Program-made: the position numbers and the translations under genes
Assembly (NCBI GenBank): GCA_030141605.1
Contig: JAQGDQ010000066.1
Location: 726,958-738,113 of the forward strand
Length of the DNA stretch: 11,156 nt
Source of the DNA: Tubiluchus corallicola
Lineage: Eukaryota; Animalia; Priapulida
Direction of reading: 5' to 3'
Notes under the pieces: generated by a model
What the model saw: only the letters and a program-made list of their open reading frames with translations
Databases searched by the model: none
What the model was told of the DNA's origin: nothing
Shown here: in pieces, positions 4 to 11,156 of the stretch
Numbering within the stretch: the first letter of the stretch is position 1
How the letters are laid out: every line of letters starts with the position of its first letter

Positions 4-100
4 ATAAAACAAACCTGATATGATTATAACTGTCTAATATAATCACATATTGTTGCATATTTGTAAGGCTTGATTACCATTATTTAAAATTGGTGGCATA
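4..100 (+). repeat. Left arm of a perfect 97-bp inverted repeat (partner 6894-6990)
   Basis: ATAAAACAAACCTGATATG...AATTGGTGGCATA (4-100) is base-for-base the reverse complement of 6894-6990. Identity stops at 101/6893 and at 3/6991; only 3 nt are visible on the outer side. Confidence 0.97.
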
Positions 101-555
101 AATTGTATTGTGTAAAGTCCGACTGTGATTATATCCGCATGATATTTTCTGTCTGCAGTTGCTCCAGTCGATCTGTAGGTAGGTAATTCATCACATGGCC
201 TAGTTTAATTACAAATAAGTTACACCTTATTGGAGTTTCATAAACTGGTACATGTAGAATAGGGTCCTATGAGATATTATGATAGGAACTTGTTTGGAAA
301 GTAATGAGCTTTTCTTTCTCTGTTTCTGCTTTGTTAAACCAGCGTTTTTCTCCAGTAGTGCTAGTTGAGTTTTAATTTGAAGGATAAGAAACTGATTTAA
401 TTTTTGCATGATAATTCTCTTAAGTAGCTGATGTAGCCCATTTTGCAAAATGCAATGCATGGAATTTTGTAAAGATAGTCTCAGGGGAGACTGAAACCTT
501 CTTTAATTTCTAGATATTTGGAAAAAGATTTTGTGACCCATAATGATTTTTATAG

Positions 556-738
556 GTACTTGTAGTATATGTCAAATCATGGAACCATTTGGTCGTGACT
601 GTGTGGGTCCATATAAGTGGCGTGCTGAGCAAACCAAATCTTACCGTTCGGGTTGGAGATATAGACAGTACCCAAAATATCCTCCGGATCATTGGACGTT
701 TCAGTCCACATTGGAACTTCAAACTTTACCATTTCTTG
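556..738 (+). CDS. Internal exon of a polycystin-1-like (PKD1L-type) gene, TOP/polycystin domain
   Basis: Acceptor TTTTTATAG|GT at 555/556 and donor G|GTAAGA at 738/739; 183 nt, phase 1-1. Encodes (G)TCSICQIMEPFGRDCVGPYKWRAEQTKSYRSGW...HWTFQSTLELQTLPFL(G), which has the C..C...Y....E....Y..GW and W.F/YQS patterns of the polycystin TOP domain. Splices in frame to 1158. Confidence 0.9.
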
Positions 739-1157
739 GTAAGAAAGATTGCGTGATTTTTATGCCATTGTAATTATTGTTTTTATCTTAGTTGCTTGGA
801 ATGGTGCGTCAGTCACCTACAAGTGCTTTCTATGCTGCGCTCAGTGACATTAGATTGACCGTTACTGTATGCAGAAGATACAAGTTTTTTTTATTTCAAC
901 ATTTACTGGTTCTTAAACTAGTCAGTTTTACTAGTGTTTCCCTGACTAGTTTTGAATTTGTGATAATTAGTGATGCAGTTTATCAGGACTCTCATTCAAT
1001 AATCATATATTTTCGCTTGTGTTTCTAATGCAGCATTAATAAGGTTAAATGTAAATGGTATTGCTGATGTCAAGAGATATTTTTACGAGCAAGTAAAGTA
1101 TGCACATATAGGTAATTACTAACATAGTACTCATTATACTAATATTTGTGTTCACAG

Positions 1158-2284
1158 GTTTACTTGCACTCTACAGTGGTGGTGGTTATGTGGCTGAGCT
1201 AACACGTAACATCACACAAAACAAAGCTCTTATAACCTCTCTCATCGACTCAAGATGGATTGATGATTACACTCGTGCCTTAGCAATCGAGTTCACTTTG
1301 TTCAATTCCAACTCAAATCTGTTCAGCATTGTATCTTTGGTAGTGGAATTTAGTGGTACTGGTGGTGTTTTCTCAACTTATAAGATTTACACGTTGAATC
1401 TCATCAAGTATGTGCAGACGGTAGAGTGGAAACTAATGACAAGTGAAATTGCTTATTGCATATTACTAGCCATTTTCATCTTCAGGGAACTCCGTAAGCT
1501 TTATGACCTGCGCTTCAAGTATTTATCCCATTTTTGGAACTGGATAGAACTGTGTATTGTTTCATTGTCCATTACTGCTCTGGCACTGTTTGTAAAGAAA
1601 ACAATGCATGTTGACAAGCTTTTGGAAAAGCAGTCATCAGAGAAGGATGCTGCTTTCGCCAGTTTTTACCAAGCTGCCTTTTGGGATTTCACTTTGACTT
1701 ACATCCTAGCATTTTTGGTCATTTTAGTCACTTTGAAGCTTTGGAATATGTTATTGTTTAACAAGCCTTTGTTGAAACATTTTTTTGTGCTGTCGACATC
1801 ATTGTTTCCTGCTGCTAACTTTTGTTTCATGGTGATACTTGGCTTGTTACCTTTTGTTCTTTTTGGAATGATAGCGTTTGGCAGTAAAATGCAAGAATTC
1901 GGTAAATTTATATTAGCTTTTAGAACAATGGTGATTATGATTGTGAGAGGTAGTGAGTTCCGCTCCTTCGAGCTTGCCCATCCGTATCTGGGACCGGTGT
2001 TTTTTGTAATTTTTACTGTGATTGCTATAACTGTCGTGGTGAGCATGTTTCGTGCGATATTGCTTAATTCATATCATTCCGTCGTAGTGGACTGGAGGAA
2101 TCAATGGGCAGAGTATGACGTTTTTGTCTATATAGCTGTAGCTGCTGAGCGACTACAGACGAAGCTAACTAGTAGATTTCGGCAACGAAAGGAAAGCATT
2201 TATGTTGAGTCCATGATCTCCTTATACCGTGATAGTGATAGCTACAGCAGAAGGAACACAATATCTGAATCCGAATCATCTTAA
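1158..2284 (+). CDS. Terminal coding exon of the polycystin-1-like gene: end of TOP domain, PKD channel helices S2-S6 and short C-tail
   Basis: Acceptor TTCACAG|GT at 1157/1158 (phase 1, 419-nt intron 739-1157); stop TAA 2282-2284. Motifs YSGGGYVAEL, WIDDYTRALAIEFTLFNSNSNLFS, YLSHFWNWIEL and AHPYLGPVFF are characteristic of the polycystin cation-channel domain. The ORF-track start at 1148 is intronic. Exact orthology cannot be assigned without a phylogeny. Confidence 0.93.
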
Positions 2285-2421
2285 GTTTTGCAAAATGTTA
2301 TATACAAACTTTTGATGATTGTTAAAGTTTGATAGAATTGTAGCTTGTTGTGTTAACTTGTACTGAAATTTTTTATATGTATGACTTTTAGAACTCAGTG
2401 TTTTGGTGATTAACAAATATT

Positions 2422-2427
2422 ATTAAA
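2422..2427 (+). terminator. Possible polyadenylation signal (ATTAAA) for the terminal exon
   Basis: ATTAAA about 140 nt after the stop codon, followed by T-rich sequence. The hexamer is common in AT-rich DNA. Confidence 0.3.
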
Positions 2428-2739
2428 TAGGATATTAGACTGATTTATTTTTAAATAATTCACCTGAATTTATGAAAGTGTATGAAAGATTGCAAGCCTA
2501 CATTAATTTTTCCCTCTAGATTAACTTAAACCAAAAAATGTTAACACATAAAGCAATTTTATTGAAGGTGTCAGTAATTCCACTGAAAAAATTACATTAA
2601 ATTAAATTGAATTACTGAAAAATTGTGAAATGTTTCTGTACGAAATGGTTGAAATTTGAACCATTAAAAATATTTGCAATTCAGTCTAAAAAACCGTTTA
2701 ACGGTTAACATACAAAAGCCACTTATGACCAAAGCCTGT

Positions 2740-2960
2740 TCTACCTCGCACAGTTCTTTTTTCGTCGGTCGCACCTACATATGAACTGTTCTCTTACAAT
2801 TGTGTCCTTTGGAAAACGTAAAAAGGCTCTTGAGCGGCACAAGACAGCCTGGTAATGACACAAACAGGAATGACCGGAAATCCGAAAACAATTTACCACA
2901 CTGCAACTATAATGCTGCGCGGCTAGAGAAACTTGTGACGTCAAACAAAAGTACCTTTCG
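2740..2960. promoter_or_regulatory. CpG-richer patch with CRE palindrome and ETS-like site; possible promoter/enhancer or TE relic
   Basis: TGACGTCA at 2936-2943, ACCGGAAA at 2873-2880, and locally more GC/CpG than the flanks. Confidence 0.25.
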
Positions 2961-3230
2961 GAGGCTGTAATACGTTACTAATTTTTTCGACAGTCGCATA
3001 CATAGTGGAATGAAGTTTTGAGGACATAAGTGTAATTTGAGCTTAACATTAAAAACTCGTTCAGCACTGCTTATATGTCTTCAAATCAAATTACAACTCG
3101 CTCGATCACGAGCACGTTATTATAAAATAATGTTTTCCAATAATGCATTAAAACTAACAGAAAGTATATTTTTTTTTAACTTTCCAGTGTTGTTTTTGAT
3201 ATTTATTCTTTAAATAAAGTCTAATCGCAG

Positions 3231-3470
3231 GTGTTGGATTTTTCTAATAAAAATTTTATACAATTTTATTATTATAGTAGTACTGCTAATTTAAACAATA
3301 ATTGTGCATTACTAAATTAAATTCATAATGTATTGTTTGAATTAGCAGTTATGTAACAATATATATAAGATGCATCGAGTTTTTAAATTCTTTATATCAA
3401 GAACAAAATCCGTTTCGTACCTACTATAACAATAAAATTGTATTAAATTGTTATTAGAAAAATCTAATGC
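3231..3470. mobile_element. Fold-back / MITE-like element with about 50-bp imperfect inverted arms
   Basis: 3231-3280 matches the reverse complement of 3421-3470 at 44/50 positions, with a 140-bp AT-rich spacer. No clear TSD. Confidence 0.7.
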
Positions 3471-3896
3471 ACGCTAGCACTCATCGCCAGGAATTACATT
3501 CAAATCCGCATATAGTCTGCATTTTTAGCTAAAAAATCTTGGTTTCAATAAACAAAGATATTTTAAATCAGTGGAATATGCGCCCTGTTGCAGTATGTCT
3601 ACTGGATGGTTTTATTTTCATTGGTTAATTACAACTGTATTTGATGTTATTAATGTGGCATTAATATTTTTAATAGCAAATAAAAATTTTTATTACTACT
3701 GCTGCTGCTATTACTACTAGCACAGTTGTACGTATGTTTAATGATTAATGAAGCTAATTATTATTATTTTTTGTTATTTAACTTGGTAGCTTGTGATGAG
3801 TGTCAGCTTCTTTTCGCAGTAATTTTCTTCCCGCAATGCGCACATGGTTATCTATCGCGCGTGGACAACATTAATGAAAATTATAATTCACAAAAA

Positions 3897-4016
3897 CCGA
3901 TCCGCCTTTTGGGTCCGCATTGTTCCTGATATTCAATAGTAGATCCGCAGTCCGATCCTATCCGCAAATTGTAGGTCTTGGTCTGATCCGGTGCGCACGT
4001 GATCTTCTCATCACTG
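3897..4016. mobile_element. Probable end fragment of a hAT-type non-autonomous DNA transposon
   Basis: Six TCCG cores (GATCCG / ATCCGCA variants) in about 95 bp, ending in CTCATCACTG (reverse complement CAGTGATGAG, resembling hAT termini). Partner end not found. Confidence 0.4.
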
Positions 4017-4055
4017 ATTCATAGTAGTAATTGCGTAAGCTTTGCATGAACATCT

Positions 4056-4619
4056 TTTTCTAAGCGCCAAAGATGACATTAAAAGCAGAAAGCAAAAAGC
4101 AATGCATGCTTTTCTTCAGCACAAGAATCTATTAACTAGGAAAAAAATTAAGTCTTAACGTAAGACTTCGATTATTTAATGCTTACGTTACCAGCATATT
4201 TATGTACAACAGTGAAACTTGGGGTTTAATGATTATTCAAGAAAAGGCGATTGACACATTTCATAGAAGTCTCCTTAAAAAGTTTTAAAGATAAGATGGC
4301 CACAGAATCAAAAGCGAAGATTTATACACCAAAACAAATGAAAGTTTTTGGAGTTCAAAAGTCAAGATCCGAAGATTAAGATGGCTATGACATCTAAGAT
4401 TACCAAATGAAGCACCAGTAAGATCGCCCTAAAACCTTGCAAAAAAAACCTGGTAAACCTAAAACAACTTGGATAACTAAGATGAATAAAGATGTTCGAC
4501 AACTTCAACCAAATCTATCTTTAGGAGAAGAAGTTACGCTGCGAGCTGCAGATAAAAGAGGGTGGAATACTCTGATAAAATACCTCAATGCCTACAACAG
4601 GTGAAATGACATTTTGATG
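4056..4619 (+). mobile_element. 5'-truncated, decayed RTE-clade non-LTR retrotransposon (3' end of the RT ORF)
   Basis: Frameshifted translation DDIKSRKQKAMHAF...LSLNVRLRLFNAYVTSIFMYNSETW...IRWP...EDLY...RRLRWL*HL...PGKPKTTW...AADKRGWNTLI, with stop TGA 4602-4604 and a short (TGA)n tail. Flanked by a 10-bp target-site duplication ATGAACATCT (4046-4055 and 4620-4629). Confidence 0.9.
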
Positions 4620-4647
4620 ATGAACATCTAATGCGACGGTTGCGACG

Positions 4648-4781
4648 CTGATTGGCTGACGAACTCAGCGTCACGGCTGCCTAGCAACTGTCTGTAGCAG
4701 ACTGCAGCCAAGGTTTTTTGTCTGATATATGAGTTGTTTCCGGTCAGTCACTTCTTTAGTTTCGGTGCGGGGAAGGTAAGT
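4648..4781 (+). promoter_or_regulatory. Candidate Pol II promoter and short non-coding first exon
   Basis: Reverse CCAAT box CTGATTGGCT (4648-4657); RFX X-box-like GCTGCCTAGCAAC (4676-4688); ETS TTTCCGGT (4737-4744); Inr-like TCAGTC (4744-4749); consensus donor AAG|GTAAGT at 4775/4776. A matching branch point CACTAAC (5559-5565) and acceptor TTTTTTAG| (5586) lie downstream. Confidence 0.55.
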
Positions 4782-5036
4782 GGTATAGCTCAATAACCGA
4801 GTTATTTTTTTAACTTATGAGATAAAATAAATTTTCAAGCAAAAAATGTTGAAAGCTTAGATTTTACATTTCCGAAAATACGTCCAGGAAAGTAAGCTGG
4901 GAAGACAAAAAATATGTAGATCAAATAACTTCTGTTTTGAGCGTCTTGTATTAAAGTGTGAAATCCATCAAATGGAATTTGAATCGCGTTCAACATTGGG
5001 GTTGTCATATTTTATTTTTTGCGTTCTGACCACAAT

Positions 5037-5495
<459 letters not shown>

Positions 5496-5728
5496 ACCAC
5501 AATGGTTGTGCCTGGGTGTACAGCAAGTACCCGTTTTGTTTAATGAGATGTTTTATGTCACTAACAGCTGATAAAACATTTTTTAGGTTTTCATCCAGTC
5601 AGGTTTAAAAGTGTCGCATTCTATACAATTGTTATGTGCCACGATTTTCCTACACATATAATCTGCCTATAGCTCCCTTCTTCTAGCATGACCTCATTAC
5701 CTACCCTGCTTAGTTCCCACTCATGCAT

Positions 5729-5810
5729 ACCAAATTACCACACTGCGAAAATGCCAATTCTGCCACACTACCAACTCACCACACTGCCAAACTGCTTGAT
5801 TAAGTTTGGC
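5729..5810. repeat. Degenerate 8-bp tandem repeat (RCCAMACT x about 8) ending in a small hairpin
   Basis: ACCAAATT ACCACACT GCGAAAAT GCCAATTCT GCCACACT ACCAACTC ACCACACT GCCAAACT, then an inverted unit AGTTTGGC at 5803-5810. Confidence 0.55.
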
Positions 5811-6117
5811 TGCTGGAATTGGTGAAAAATGAAATATATCAATGTATTAAACCAAGAGCACAAGACGAAATAGAAATAAAAGCGAAACTTAGGTTTTCTT
5901 GAGTTATGGAGATTACAGGGTTAAAAATGTATGTGAATGTAATGAAGTGAGTGAGAGTGGTATTTGCAGGTAAACTGAGTACAATGGTGGTTAAAATGCA
6001 CTTAATGTACTTAATAAAAATTATTTCAAAGAAGTTTGGAACACAATGAAATTTAGTAATTTAACCCCGAGAATGGTGATCTTAATTAACGTCACTCTGA
6101 TTTTCAAGTTGGTATTC

Positions 6118-6752
6118 GTTGTGTAAAACACACATTTTTGTAGCAAATATGTTCTTCAAATGACCATATTCCCAATTCTGATATAAACCTCCATTAGCTC
6201 GTAGTTTTAAGCATTCCCAACGTAATTCTTAAATTGACTTACCTTGAGTGCTTTCCGTTTCATCTAATTCATTTTTTCATGTTTGACCAAGTTTCAGAGT
6301 TATAGATTAATGTTGGTATTGCAAGTGAGTCAAAAAGTTTTAATTTTTGTTTCTACTGACATTATTCCGATATTATCAACATTTGCTAAGGAGTTAATAT
6401 AGCTTATTTTAAATTTGTTGTTCTCTTTTCACTTTTCTGTTAACTGCTTATAAGTATCTTTATGTATAGCTTTGTGTTTCATGAATTTTCCCTTTGGTAA
6501 GTTTTTCTTTTAGTGGAAAAATTCTTTTCTTTCTAGTCATCATTGTTTGCATTGACTGTGTTTTTAACACTGACCTTTAGTCTTTCTAATTCTTCAGTTT
6601 TTCTACAATTTTTAACCAGTCATTTAATAGTATATACATTACTAGATATCATCTACATATATCATCATTTCTGTTTCAAGCACAGGAGTTATTATTGTTT
6701 GCACTTTTTCAAAATAATTTATTCTGTTCACTGTTGCACAGCACAACAGTGA
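6118..6752 (-). mobile_element. Decayed non-LTR retrotransposon (LINE) reverse-transcriptase fragment
   Basis: Minus-strand translation with stops and frameshifts: LLCCATVNRINYFEKVQTIITPVLETEMMIYVDDI (YVDD at 6659-6648) ... IGIMSVETKI/KLFDSLAIPTLIYNSETWSNM...ELDETESTQGK...LRITLGMLKTT..ISELGIWSFEEHICYK. This is an RT catalytic motif plus the LINE thumb region. Boundaries are approximate. Confidence 0.85.
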
Positions 6753-6893
6753 GTGTGTTTTCACTTTCAGCTGCTAAAAACTTAAAATCAGGGGTGAAGC
6801 TAGATTCTAAAGTTAGCGGAAGCAAGCACATAAAAAGCGTTGTGACACGTACCAAGAAGGTGCTGTGGCAAATGAAGCAATTATATTTTCGTC

Positions 6894-6990
6894 TATGCCA
6901 CCAATTTTAAATAATGGTAATCAAGCCTTACAAATATGCAACAATATGTGATTATATTAGACAGTTATAATCATATCAGGTTTGTTTTAT
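6894..6990 (-). repeat. Right arm of the perfect 97-bp inverted repeat; intronic, starting 50 nt after the donor of exon 7206-7041
   Basis: Exact reverse complement of 4-100. Confidence 0.97.
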
Positions 6991-7040
6991 CGTATGACAG
7001 CTCCAATAGAGGATTTCAGGCAAAGAATTACTGTACTCAC

Positions 7041-7206
7041 CATCACTAGCTCTCAGTTGTCGTAACCTCGGCACACTTACAAGCCAACTAACCAGATCAG
7101 TGGCAAACCCTTCAGGAGCAGCTTTACCATTATACAAATAATCCGGAAATAAGCTTGGCTCTAACGTGTTGTTTATGTAATCCCACATAGTTGCAACATC
7201 CTTTAC
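7041..7206 (-). CDS. Internal exon of the polycystin-1-like gene (first half of TOP domain)
   Basis: Acceptor TTGATTAG| at 7207/7206 and donor G|GTGAGT at 7041/7040; 166 nt, phase 0-1. Encodes VKDVATMWDYINNTLEPSLFPDYLYNGKAAPEGFATDLVSWLVSVPRLRQLRASD(G), with the polycystin hallmark PRLRQLR. Confidence 0.92.
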
Positions 7207-7396
7207 CTAATCAAGTCATAAATACATAACTTATTAAACAAAGATGAATTTAATCACACTGTAACATAAGTTTACCAGATTCTCATTCAAGGTTACCTAT
7301 GCTGGGTTTGGAGAGTTTTACAGTGTCTACTCAGCAATAACGTAACAATCTTTCAACTGTCTCAAGTAGTAATAGAAAAATGATAAAAACACTTAC

Positions 7397-7472
7397 ATCA
7401 GTAAATTTTGTTTTCCCGCAATAAGCTGCGTTGATCACAACATCTTTTACGGTTTTTGTCACCATGAAAGAC
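7397..7472 (-). CDS. Internal exon of the polycystin-1-like gene (start of TOP domain)
   Basis: Acceptor TTTACAG| at 7473/7472 and donor |GTAAGT at 7396; 76 nt, phase 2-0. Encodes (R)SFMVTKTVKDVVINAAYCGKTKFTD. Phases fit both neighbouring exons. Confidence 0.85.
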
Positions 7473-7860
7473 CTGTAAATTGCAATTGCAAATAATGCCA
7501 TGCCTATATAAGTTCAACGAAAAGCAATCAAGTGCCAAAACTTTTAAATGTAAATAGGTACCAGATAGGAAGTTACAAGCACACAGGCTTCCAGCTGAAG
7601 CAAGTAGATAGAATGATTCTATCGGCTCTGTGTGGTTTATGACTCAAAAGTTGAGAGTTCTACTCTGCAGTTGGATAACATCAGATATTAAAAAATTTTC
7701 TTATGTCTCTCATTAGCACGAAGACGATGTTCTTGGTTAATATAGTTGCATATAAGTAAAAATGGACAGAAAAAAATGCACTGTGAATGTCGCTTTTGTC
7801 CAAGTGTGCTACATAGGCTGGTCTTATGGTTAAACAGGCAAAACAATTGCTAATGTTTAC

Positions 7861-8040
7861 CTGGCATCCCGAAAATAATACACAATGTTTGACAGCATCA
7901 TGATGAAAAAACCGAACATAAACAATTCTCTGATTAAGCGATGCATCTTTCGTTGGCGCTTTCTCTCCTTTCTATCTTTGGACAGCTTCCCTTCATCGGG
8001 TGGATTATAAAGTTCTGTGGTATCACGCGTCTGCATATGT
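7861..8040 (-). CDS. Internal exon of the polycystin-1-like gene (pre-S1 helix and S1)
   Basis: Acceptor TTGAAACAG| at 8041/8040 and donor AG|GTAAAC at 7861/7860; 180 nt, phase 2-2. Encodes HMQTRDTTELYNPPDEGKLSKDRKERKRQRKMHRLIRELFMFGFFIMMLSNIVYYFRDA(R), the Y.PP...R..R...KM..LIRE + TM + RD pattern of PKD1-like proteins. Confidence 0.88.
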
Positions 8041-9185
8041 CTGTTTCAAGTAATCATAAAACAAAAAACATGCATAAAGCTACAGTTGGTAGAAGATTTT
8101 TTGATATCAGCAAAAAAATGTTGAAAAATGTTTAGTTTACTTAAAAAACTACACAAATTTTAGTACAAAAAGGCATGTAAAGTAGAGCACACTGCTTAAA
8201 GTAGTAAACAGATATTGCATCAAATTTACTACTTTAAACAGTTTTCGTAAGTCACTCACAAGACGATTAGACTATAATTAGTAATAAAGAATAAGAACTG
8301 TTAAACACTATATTTATGACCTTGTAACTGTTAATTAGATGTTTATGCCTACGATAAACCAGAAGAGTCTAGCATCAGCATCCAGTCTACTAGCAGCGAG
8401 CAGCGAGATGCATTCAGTAGAGTGCATAAAACCATAGATTTGTGGTGATGACACATCACAGATTAATGAATCAAATGCTGGAAAATAAGTGTTCCCATTT
8501 TTCAGCCATTTCACATCATGTGTCTACTGGGCAGACAAAAAGCCTGCAATGGCGAGACATACTACTGTAAACAATAAGTCATCAGGAGAAATTTAAACAG
8601 GATTCGGATTTTGTGTACGTGCCTCCGTCCTCACATCTTACCAAGAGAAGGTAGAAAAATGATCATAAGCCACTGAATTCAAGCCACAGAAACTTTCTTA
8701 CTAAACTACCACTCAAGAATACCACTTATATAAGAACACTCATTCACTAGATCTTAATGGCCCCATCTTCGAATAGCATCTTCCTAACATAACTTTCACA
8801 AGCTTAAGCGATCTATGCCAAAAACCTATTCCAGTAGGGTACGAAGAGTACCTCACAAATCATGAACAGCTGCTTCTTAGTAATTGAAAAACACTAAAGC
8901 ATAGCGTAAAAGGAATATTACACAGACTAAGAAAAGTATTATTATTTGTAACAACATTCATTAAACACTGATTGATAACCAACTGATCACATTTGAAATC
9001 AGCAGCAGCTTCAAGTTTTTGAAAAAAACGTGTTTTTATAAGACAGCACAATATGTGTACTATATAAAATTCATTTGAAATATTTAAGTTCGATTTGTTT
9101 AATTACTTTAACTATTACATTATGTTCTCTTATAATTTTATTATGCTATTTCCGTTGTAGAATTTTTTACTTTGTTAGTTTTATG

Positions 9186-9509
<324 letters not shown>

Positions 9510-11086
9510 ATCATAACTAAATCGCAATTGAATAGTCATTGTCGACGCAAGCAGTTAGACTGTGTACACATGGTTCAATTTAATAAGTATATTTTAGGTC
9601 AATTTATATTTAATTTGTGGTTTAATAATACAAAAATATTTGTTTCATTTTAAAAACAAACTTTAACTTTGTACAAAGTCGCTCTTGTAAAGTTATTTAA
9701 TTATTCACACAATACTGTTGTAAATTAAACACCAAGTGATATAATATATATAATTATGTATATAAGTTAGCATTACAGTGCATATGAGCTGCAATAAAAA
9801 TTTTAGCCGGAATAATTCTGAGGCTTTCAAAAGGTGTAATTTGACACTAAAGAGCTTGAGCAGTCCATTTTTATAGATGCTGGCTCACAAATAAACTAAA
9901 CTGCACATACTAGTAGTAGTATAAATACCATATATTTTAATTATTGGTCTGTCAAGTAGTAACTACAGTAATGTTATAATTCAAATGAACAAGAAATTAG
10001 TGCACAATTTGTACTATCCTACACTGTGAATGAATCAGTTATTTAAATATAACCCTATTTCAACTGTAATAATATAGTAGCGTAATATTTATAAATAATT
10101 AAACAAATCAAGCTTGACTAGATCCATAACTTTTTGATATACGTTGTGCTATCTTACAGAACACAGCTGTTTATCAAGACATTGAAACGTTACAGTCTTG
10201 CTGATTTTAATTAAATGCCTATAACTAAAAAATATGTCTAGAGAAAAAAGCATATAAAGACTGGACTTCAGAAATACATGATAGACTTTCCAAGCATTTT
10301 GAAAATGAGAACATTTTCAGTGTATTTGCTGTTTTTATAAATAATTTTCTATGATTTTTATACTCTGTCTGGTTTGAAAGTTCATTTTAAGTTTAAAGCA
10401 CAAGAAAATTCTCATTATACATAAAGCTTAAAAAATTCGTCTTGAGATTTTATACCACTTACATACTGCCTTTTTCATGCAGGTCTTTCGTCTGCAGTAA
10501 TACTGCATAAAGCATGTAAATTTAAACTCCTGCGATGACCATTAGGCGCAGCCATTTTGATGGTAGCCTGTTTGATAAGTTTGCATTGCAGAAATCAGAA
10601 CGTTCGTAGCACATGTGTTACTAAGTAAAATTTTACATTACTGTATCTGCCAATAAGATTAAAAAGACATTTTTGCTTAGTAAATGGCGCAACCTGGAGA
10701 GTGAGCCAGCGACATTTTACTAACTGGCATGAACATTTTAAATTATTATTTCTAGTAACTTACGTCTTTCCAGCAGGTAAGCAAAATGCTAAGTAATATA
10801 GATTTTCATTGGAAATTTTTTCGGACATAATTTAACGTTGCCTTTTCCCCTGATTTACGTTTGCATAAATGACATATGTATAAAATTGCTTTAAAGTAAT
10901 AATTTTTTTGAGGCGATTTTTCTGAAACCTACTTCAGATACCCCCTTTTCTTGTCCATTAACATTTCTAAAAAACAAATCAACAGTTTAAAAATGTTAGT
11001 TTGCAAGGAAATCAATTAGTTAGCTTGCTTATTAAACTTTGTTAACAATGTATATAATCATAAAGACATTTTTAATTTTGACTTAC

Positions 11087-11156
11087 CTCTCATACATTTT
11101 ACACCACTCCTCATGCAACAGCTCGTCTTTCTCGTGTATGAGAGGCACATACACTT
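11087..11156 (-). CDS. 3' part of an upstream exon of the polycystin-1-like gene (runs off the window)
   Basis: Open frame VYVPLIHEKDELLHEEWCKMYE(R) ending at consensus donor GAG|GTAAGT (11087/11086). Phase 2 matches the acceptor at 8040 (3046-nt intron). Confidence 0.72.

Follow-up and report, generated by a model that had tools for sequence, protein, structure and literature searches.

An 11,156-nt stretch of DNA from the priapulid Tubiluchus corallicola (hereafter the window, meaning the whole stretch that we analyzed) carries the two halves of a polycystin-1-like gene on opposite strands, with a 6.8-kb segment between two perfect 97-bp inverted repeats lying across the gene. We find that the window is very probably an inverted (fold-back) template-switch chimera of one intact polycystin-1-like locus, and that the split-gene arrangement is most likely a chimera of this kind rather than a real feature of the organism. 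In the organism's contig data, the gene is uninterrupted and lacks the inverted repeat. A preliminary description of this DNA had offered four explanations, namely a reversible switch, a recent inversion allele, an inverted duplication or paralog, and an assembly or amplification chimera; the last is the one that the data support, with no contig carrying the window's join.

Comparison of the window with itself confirmed that the inverted repeats reported in that description are exact and present in the record, with 97 of 97 bases identical between 4-100 and the reverse complement of 6894-6990. When microsatellites are left out, the runner-up exact inverted match in the window is 16 nt long. 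The innermost bases of the right-hand copy, 6894-6901, are the reverse complement of 93-100, and the chance of an 8-nt match at a given alignment is about 3e-5.

To learn what the organism itself carries at these positions, we compared the window with public runs. Of six runs listed, four contain the stretch; sample S1 is the origin of X1, X2, and X4, and a second study contributes X3. The data are Logan contigs (k = 31), which are simplified and are not reads, and from which rare variants are lost; the accessible part of the paper describing them states that they are simplified by Minia3 and that k-mers seen once are thrown out (10.1101/2024.07.30.605881). The comparison covers the window up to 9224. 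A 2154-nt X1 contig starting at 7071 would stop at that position, where a compound microsatellite begins. For 6810-7260, 22 of 51 contig records are listed, and we therefore base the absence of the join on the depth table, which is complete. Sample S1 is probably the source individual of the record, because X1 contains a 0.93 share of the window's words and differs from it by only 3 letters in total (365, 4664, and 8098) across 8 listed contigs, and because X2 agrees with the window at two of these three, carrying its letter at 4664 and 8098 as heterozygous sites would. Single-copy depth in X1 is 165-194 and is even on 7 of the 8 listed contigs. Run X4 has low depth (0 at 1-274 and 1.0 at 6851-7124) and is uninformative. 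The depth of X3 is 0 over 6906-7129, which leaves the 97-mer outside its cover, and the second study bears on the right-hand side only.

The features that define the apparent inversion are as follows.

4-100, + strand: 97-nt piece of the polycystin intron ("R") in its native position, running on into 101 onward; an unbroken 596-nt contig lies over 100/101.
93-100, + strand: 8-nt site GTGGCATA, putative priming site of the template switch; reverse complement of 6894-6901.
6894-6901, + strand: 8-nt microhomology TATGCCAC at the chimeric junction; contigs of X1, X2, and X3 depart after 6901.
6894-6990, - strand: inverted second copy of the 97-mer, the same single locus as 4-100 in the organism's data; its depth equals that of the 596-nt contig alone.

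None of the three DNA-type runs (X1, X2, and X3) shows the 6893/6894 join among its contigs over 6810-7260. At 100/101, a single 596-nt contig spans 9-604 without a break in X1 (depth 194.3) and in X2 (7.26), which argues against two copies of the 97-mer, since differing neighbors would break the contig at 100. The depth over 6906-6953 (three bins) is exactly that of this contig, 194.3 in X1 and 7.26 in X2. Because the 596-nt contig alone accounts for this depth, nothing bridges 6893/6894 as assembled; a junction unitig would cover about 6872-6923 and raise the depth there. The loose end of the 596-nt contig before 6894 is the reverse complement of 101-130. The native junction at 6990/6991 is bridged in both X1 and X2 by a 142-nt contig (6958-7099) with 0 differences, and the depths there add up in such a way that no contig can end at 6990. 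The surplus depth at 6986-7001 is wholly due to a 32-nt unitig common to a paralog. No X1 or X2 contig extends past base 1, beyond the 3/4 junction, and the only X1 record over a window end is the 7071-8200 contig. The preliminary description had reasoned that a lack of anything spanning 6893/6894 as assembled would mean an artifact, and that is what we observed, at the level of assembled contigs rather than raw reads.

The sequence that truly follows the left side of the join is visible in the same runs. The left-side contigs of X1 (297 nt), X2 (1471 nt), and X3 (291 nt) match the window with 0 differences over 6810-6901, and after 6901 they continue with 41 other letters in three of three runs from two studies. 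The X1 contig begins at 6646 and shares a 30-nt (k-1) overlap with the unique 5467-6675 contig, and that of X2 covers 5476-6901 in a single piece; the overlap and the reach back to 5476 show that the contigs leaving at 6901 belong to this locus and not to another copy of the repeat. The loose-end consensus of X3 mixes two contigs, with 19 of 30 letters agreeing with S1 (counted by eye), and our claim for this run is limited to the departure at 6901 and the 41-nt length. Positions 6577-6901 themselves belong to a degenerate repeat family with patchy depth, several other copies of which also depart at 6901. The 8-nt junction motif is thus a native part of this repeat, near where its copies seem to diverge.

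The native order in the organism is therefore the upstream exons (from 11156 towards 6991, reversed), the 97-mer, 101-6893, TATGCCAC, and then other DNA. The 97-mer occurs once, at single-copy depth, in S1 (X1 and X2), and native 101-6893 holds exon 556-738, then exon 1158-2284, and then downstream DNA. The window instead starts with the 97-mer and runs through the downstream part as far as 6901, after which the 97-mer and the upstream part follow as their reverse complement. Flipping 101-6893, as previously proposed, does rebuild the gene; it does not rebuild the native locus, as a second 97-mer would remain at the place that other DNA occupies in the organism. The 97-mer folds in an ordinary manner (z +1.09, with 179 of 200 shuffles as good). 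We considered it as a transposon end or hairpin and ruled this out by its single-copy depth and by folding that is no better than that of shuffles.

These observations suggest how the window may have formed. A growing DNA strand would have quit its template at 6901 and re-primed at 93-100 of a same-sense copy, to which 8 of its bases match; from there, synthesis presumably went back over the 97-mer and into the upstream exons. The apparent inverted repeat would be the stretch read twice, between the left end of the molecule (base 4) and the priming site (base 100). We infer that the switch happened in vitro, either while the DNA was amplified or while the library was prepared, and a small contig may be what is left of one or a few chimeric molecules. 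As such a chimera would, the window joins two opposite-strand segments of one locus, 6.8 kb apart and thus below about 10 kb, with a short shared overlap of 8 nt at the joint, and its junction is missing from contigs of the same sample and species (X1, X2, and X3). Bases 1-3 fit neither the sequence that natively lies upstream of the 97-mer nor the native downstream DNA in reversed orientation. They are likely end-of-record noise, and the window may be an entire small record, judging from its length and these three unmatched first bases.

Several points weigh against a template-switch origin. The evidence comes from contigs and not reads, with rare variants dropped by simplification, and the 97-mer has no cover in X3. 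Amplification is supposed rather than documented, as there is no record of the library from which the window came, and the X1 depth is even (165-194 on 7 of the 8 listed contigs). Foldbacks are virtually nil in unamplified HiFi data, according to the accessible part of PMC12870357, and the available text of a study of PacBio data from multiple displacement amplification (MDA) gives 3 nt as the commonest overlap and 750-1200 nt as the commonest distance (10.1101/2022.08.13.503872), which places 6.8 kb in the tail of the distribution. Real cellular end-joining also typically has short microhomology, as stated in the accessible part of 10.64898/2026.06.24.734375. In addition, if the window is a chimera, it is by coincidence that its left end and the priming site lie a mere 97 nt apart.

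A real but rare or private rearrangement, produced by microhomology-mediated inversion or fold-back duplication in one haplotype, clone, or individual, would be static and would break this polycystin copy. We regard it as unlikely, and its variant, a low-frequency somatic or private allele in which one copy of a gene that multiplied recently is knocked out, present in the assembled haplotype yet too rare to survive in contigs, is to be doubted to the same degree. A rearrangement of this kind would explain the sharpness of both 97-mer ends, and the microhomology agrees with cellular repair; paralogs also exist (depth 2-3x; contigs with 14-28 differences), and loss of one copy may be tolerable. 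Inverted duplications at 17 of 29 Drosophila inversion breakpoints have been explained by staggered breaks, according to the available text of PMC1885836. A heterozygous S1 allele, however, predicts a half-depth join and, on the assumption that the assembler keeps half-depth branches, broken 596-nt and 297-nt contigs, and both contigs are unbroken. A rare allele requires a carrier other than S1 or a frequency too low for graph simplification. No X1 contig runs past base 1, and to the left of the 97-mer there are three bases that agree with neither native neighbor. For a staggered-break inversion allele specifically, the right breakpoint junction, 6893/6894, is unbridged in the contigs of X1, X2, and X3, with S1 as the probable source, and the left breakpoint offers just those 3 bases. 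With S1 contigs unbranched at both 100/101 and 6901, the recent inversion allele suggested earlier is disfavored.

An inverted paralog or recent inverted duplication, in which a separate set of upstream exons, located to the left of the window, would serve the + strand exons and the - strand half would be a truncated copy, is highly improbable. The genome does contain close paralogs of the gene, but these show 7-28 letter differences over 60-210 nt, and there are none between the two 97-mers. The 97-mer depth is single-copy, no contig gives the 97-mer a second neighbor on either side, and the duplication put forward in the preliminary description is not needed to account for the data.

A reversible ON/OFF inversion switch between the 97-bp inverted repeats, controlling a receptor-channel gene, is scarcely credible: the window geometry (an exact inverted repeat within one intron, with both halves free of lesions) is all that speaks for it, while flipping retains both repeats in both states, and X1 and X2 hold one copy instead of two flanking inverted copies. 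After 6901, the intact form in S1 continues with unrelated sequence, and S2 departs at 6901 likewise. Because the common form has one repeat, recombination has no partner, and the switch is refuted for the common allele. The 97-mer is without a notable fold (z +1.09), and only the intact orientation appears in the contigs, which drop rare variants.

If the window is a fold-back chimera, as we favor, the arrangement has no biological significance, since the polycystin gene is ordinary and intact in the organism's data. Its value is as a warning: a perfect inverted repeat beginning only a few bases from the end of a record, with a gene that is "restored" on flipping, is the expected look of a fold-back chimera, and the record is unfit for gene models or inversion calls.

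The two halves do belong to one gene, joined as the preliminary description proposed, with an open frame, a 602-nt GT-AG intron (147+455 nt after the flip), and a continuous domain order. The window contains five exons of this gene, three on the - strand and two on the + strand.

7861-8040, - strand: polycystin exon, 180 nt, encoding the PPD motif plus the first channel helix (AG/GT ends, open frame, tblastn).
7397-7472, - strand: polycystin exon, 76 nt (AG/GT ends, open frame when joined).
7041-7206, - strand: polycystin exon, 166 nt, with the start of the TOP domain; its native intron leads to the 97-mer (PF20519 5-55, E 0.013; 142-nt contig).
556-738, + strand: polycystin exon, 183 nt, covering the central portion of the TOP/polycystin domain (AG/GT ends, open frame; PF20519 58-112, E 0.076).
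1158-2284, + strand: last polycystin exon, 1127 nt, with the channel domain and stop codon (PF08016, E 5.3e-35; PF20519, E 5.5e-22).

Spliced in silico, these exons give 576 codons plus a stop with zero internal stops, with AG acceptors on all five and GT donors on the first four. The 70-nt first exon and the count of 599 aa given previously are not confirmed, as the sole open 70-nt AG-GT candidate in 8085-11150 sits within a microsatellite; a search of that interval for further upstream exons returned nothing convincing. The N-terminal GPS/GAIN and PLAT domains and five more helices presumably lie beyond the window. Positions in the Pfam Polycystin_dom model (PF20519) run consecutively over the strand split, from 5-55 and 58-112 to 117-199 in the last exon, where the matches of exons 7206-7041 and 556-738 fall under the curated cut-off.

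The sequence comparisons suggest that the gene is polycystin-1-like rather than PKD2, on the grounds that the exon with the PPD motif matches proteins named PKD1L2 and not those named PKD2. In tblastn, exon 8040-7861 gave E values of 8e-6 to 9e-5 from four of four proteins named PKD1-like 2 (PKD1L2), and E values of 0.22 to 3, or no match, with five PKD2-named proteins. The other comparisons discriminate less sharply. Among 11 proteins in blastp, the joined reading has its top match to a Saccoglossus PKD1L2-like protein (217 bits, 28% over 523 columns), with the three best PKD2 proteins nearly level at 205-209 bits. For the channel exon taken alone, PKD2 outscores PKD1-like proteins, and against PDB, exon 1158-2284 matches polycystin-2 (E 9e-46) and PKD1L3 (E 4e-30). 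The succession of PF20519 (TOP) and PF08016 (PKD channel) is common to PKD2 as well and alone is not diagnostic.

Related copies of the gene are apparent in the same runs. Exon depth is 2-3x single copy at window positions 485-771, 1022-1714, and 6956-7280, and paralog contigs of ≈86-97% identity span exons and parts of introns in X1, X2, and X4, which points to a recent local expansion of the polycystin family. No RNA run is among those listed as containing the stretch. In run X6, which is RNA by guess and has next to none of the window's words, a 172-nt contig aligns to 7039-7205, almost exactly the extent of exon 7206-7041; it differs at 14 positions, and 5 loose letters extend from it on the donor side. 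This contig fits a spliced transcript of a paralog or relative, and we used it neither for nor against the junction.

The window contains several other repeats. A very high-copy miniature inverted-repeat transposable element at 5037-5495 has 15-nt terminal inverted repeats beginning CAGGG, an internal (GA)n tract, and an 8-bp target-site duplication, ACCACAAT, whose length suggests the hAT superfamily. Its summed depth in X1 reaches 5.8e5, compared to ≈175 for single copy, and loose contig ends pile up at 5037 and 5495. A degenerate high-copy fragment at about 4100-4625 (X1 depth ≈1e5) has a translation that we take to resemble the C-terminal end of an RTE-type long interspersed nuclear element. 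A compound (CT)n/(CTCACT)n microsatellite of ≈290 nt occupies 9210-9500.

The gene resembles invertebrate polycystin-1-like (PKD1L2-like) genes in its PPD motif before the first channel helix, its TOP domain, and its six-helix channel, and differs in that the N-terminal GPS, PLAT, and REJ parts are outside what the window yielded. The layout recalls the bacterial phase-variation invertons fimS and hin, in which a segment lies between inverted repeats and its orientation would switch a gene. Those invertons keep both repeats in both states, whereas the intact state here has a single repeat copy. Staggered-break inversions, as presented in the accessible part of Ranz et al. 2007 (PMC1885836), likewise leave an inverted duplication of non-repetitive sequence at the ends of the reversed segment, but they call for another genuine breakpoint, where downstream DNA would lie to the left of base 4, and for genomic support, neither of which is seen.

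Artifacts of sequencing provide a further comparison. Long-read foldback artifacts share with the window overlapping reverse-complement alignments from one locus in one molecule (available text of PMC12870357 and 10.64898/2026.06.24.734375). The Nanopore follow-on foldbacks described in the latter have ≈35 adapter bases at the joint, whereas the two parts of the window meet in an 8-nt overlap without any insert, and the loop is 6.8 kb long. The inverted chimeras of phi29 MDA, as characterized in the accessible part of PMC9984789, have overlaps mostly of 5-8 nt and distances usually below 10 kb. The window departs from them in that its library type is not on record, its 6.8 kb exceeds the usual distance, and its duplicated arm is just 97 nt, as the record ends there. 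It is like them in joining opposite strands of one locus less than 10 kb apart, in its 8-nt overlap, and in being absent from the sample's other data, and re-priming of a nascent strand on the same-sense strand is the route described there for their formation. According to the available text of 10.64898/2026.06.11.730069, chimeric MDA reads lead to thousands of false inversion calls and to misassemblies in HiFi data.

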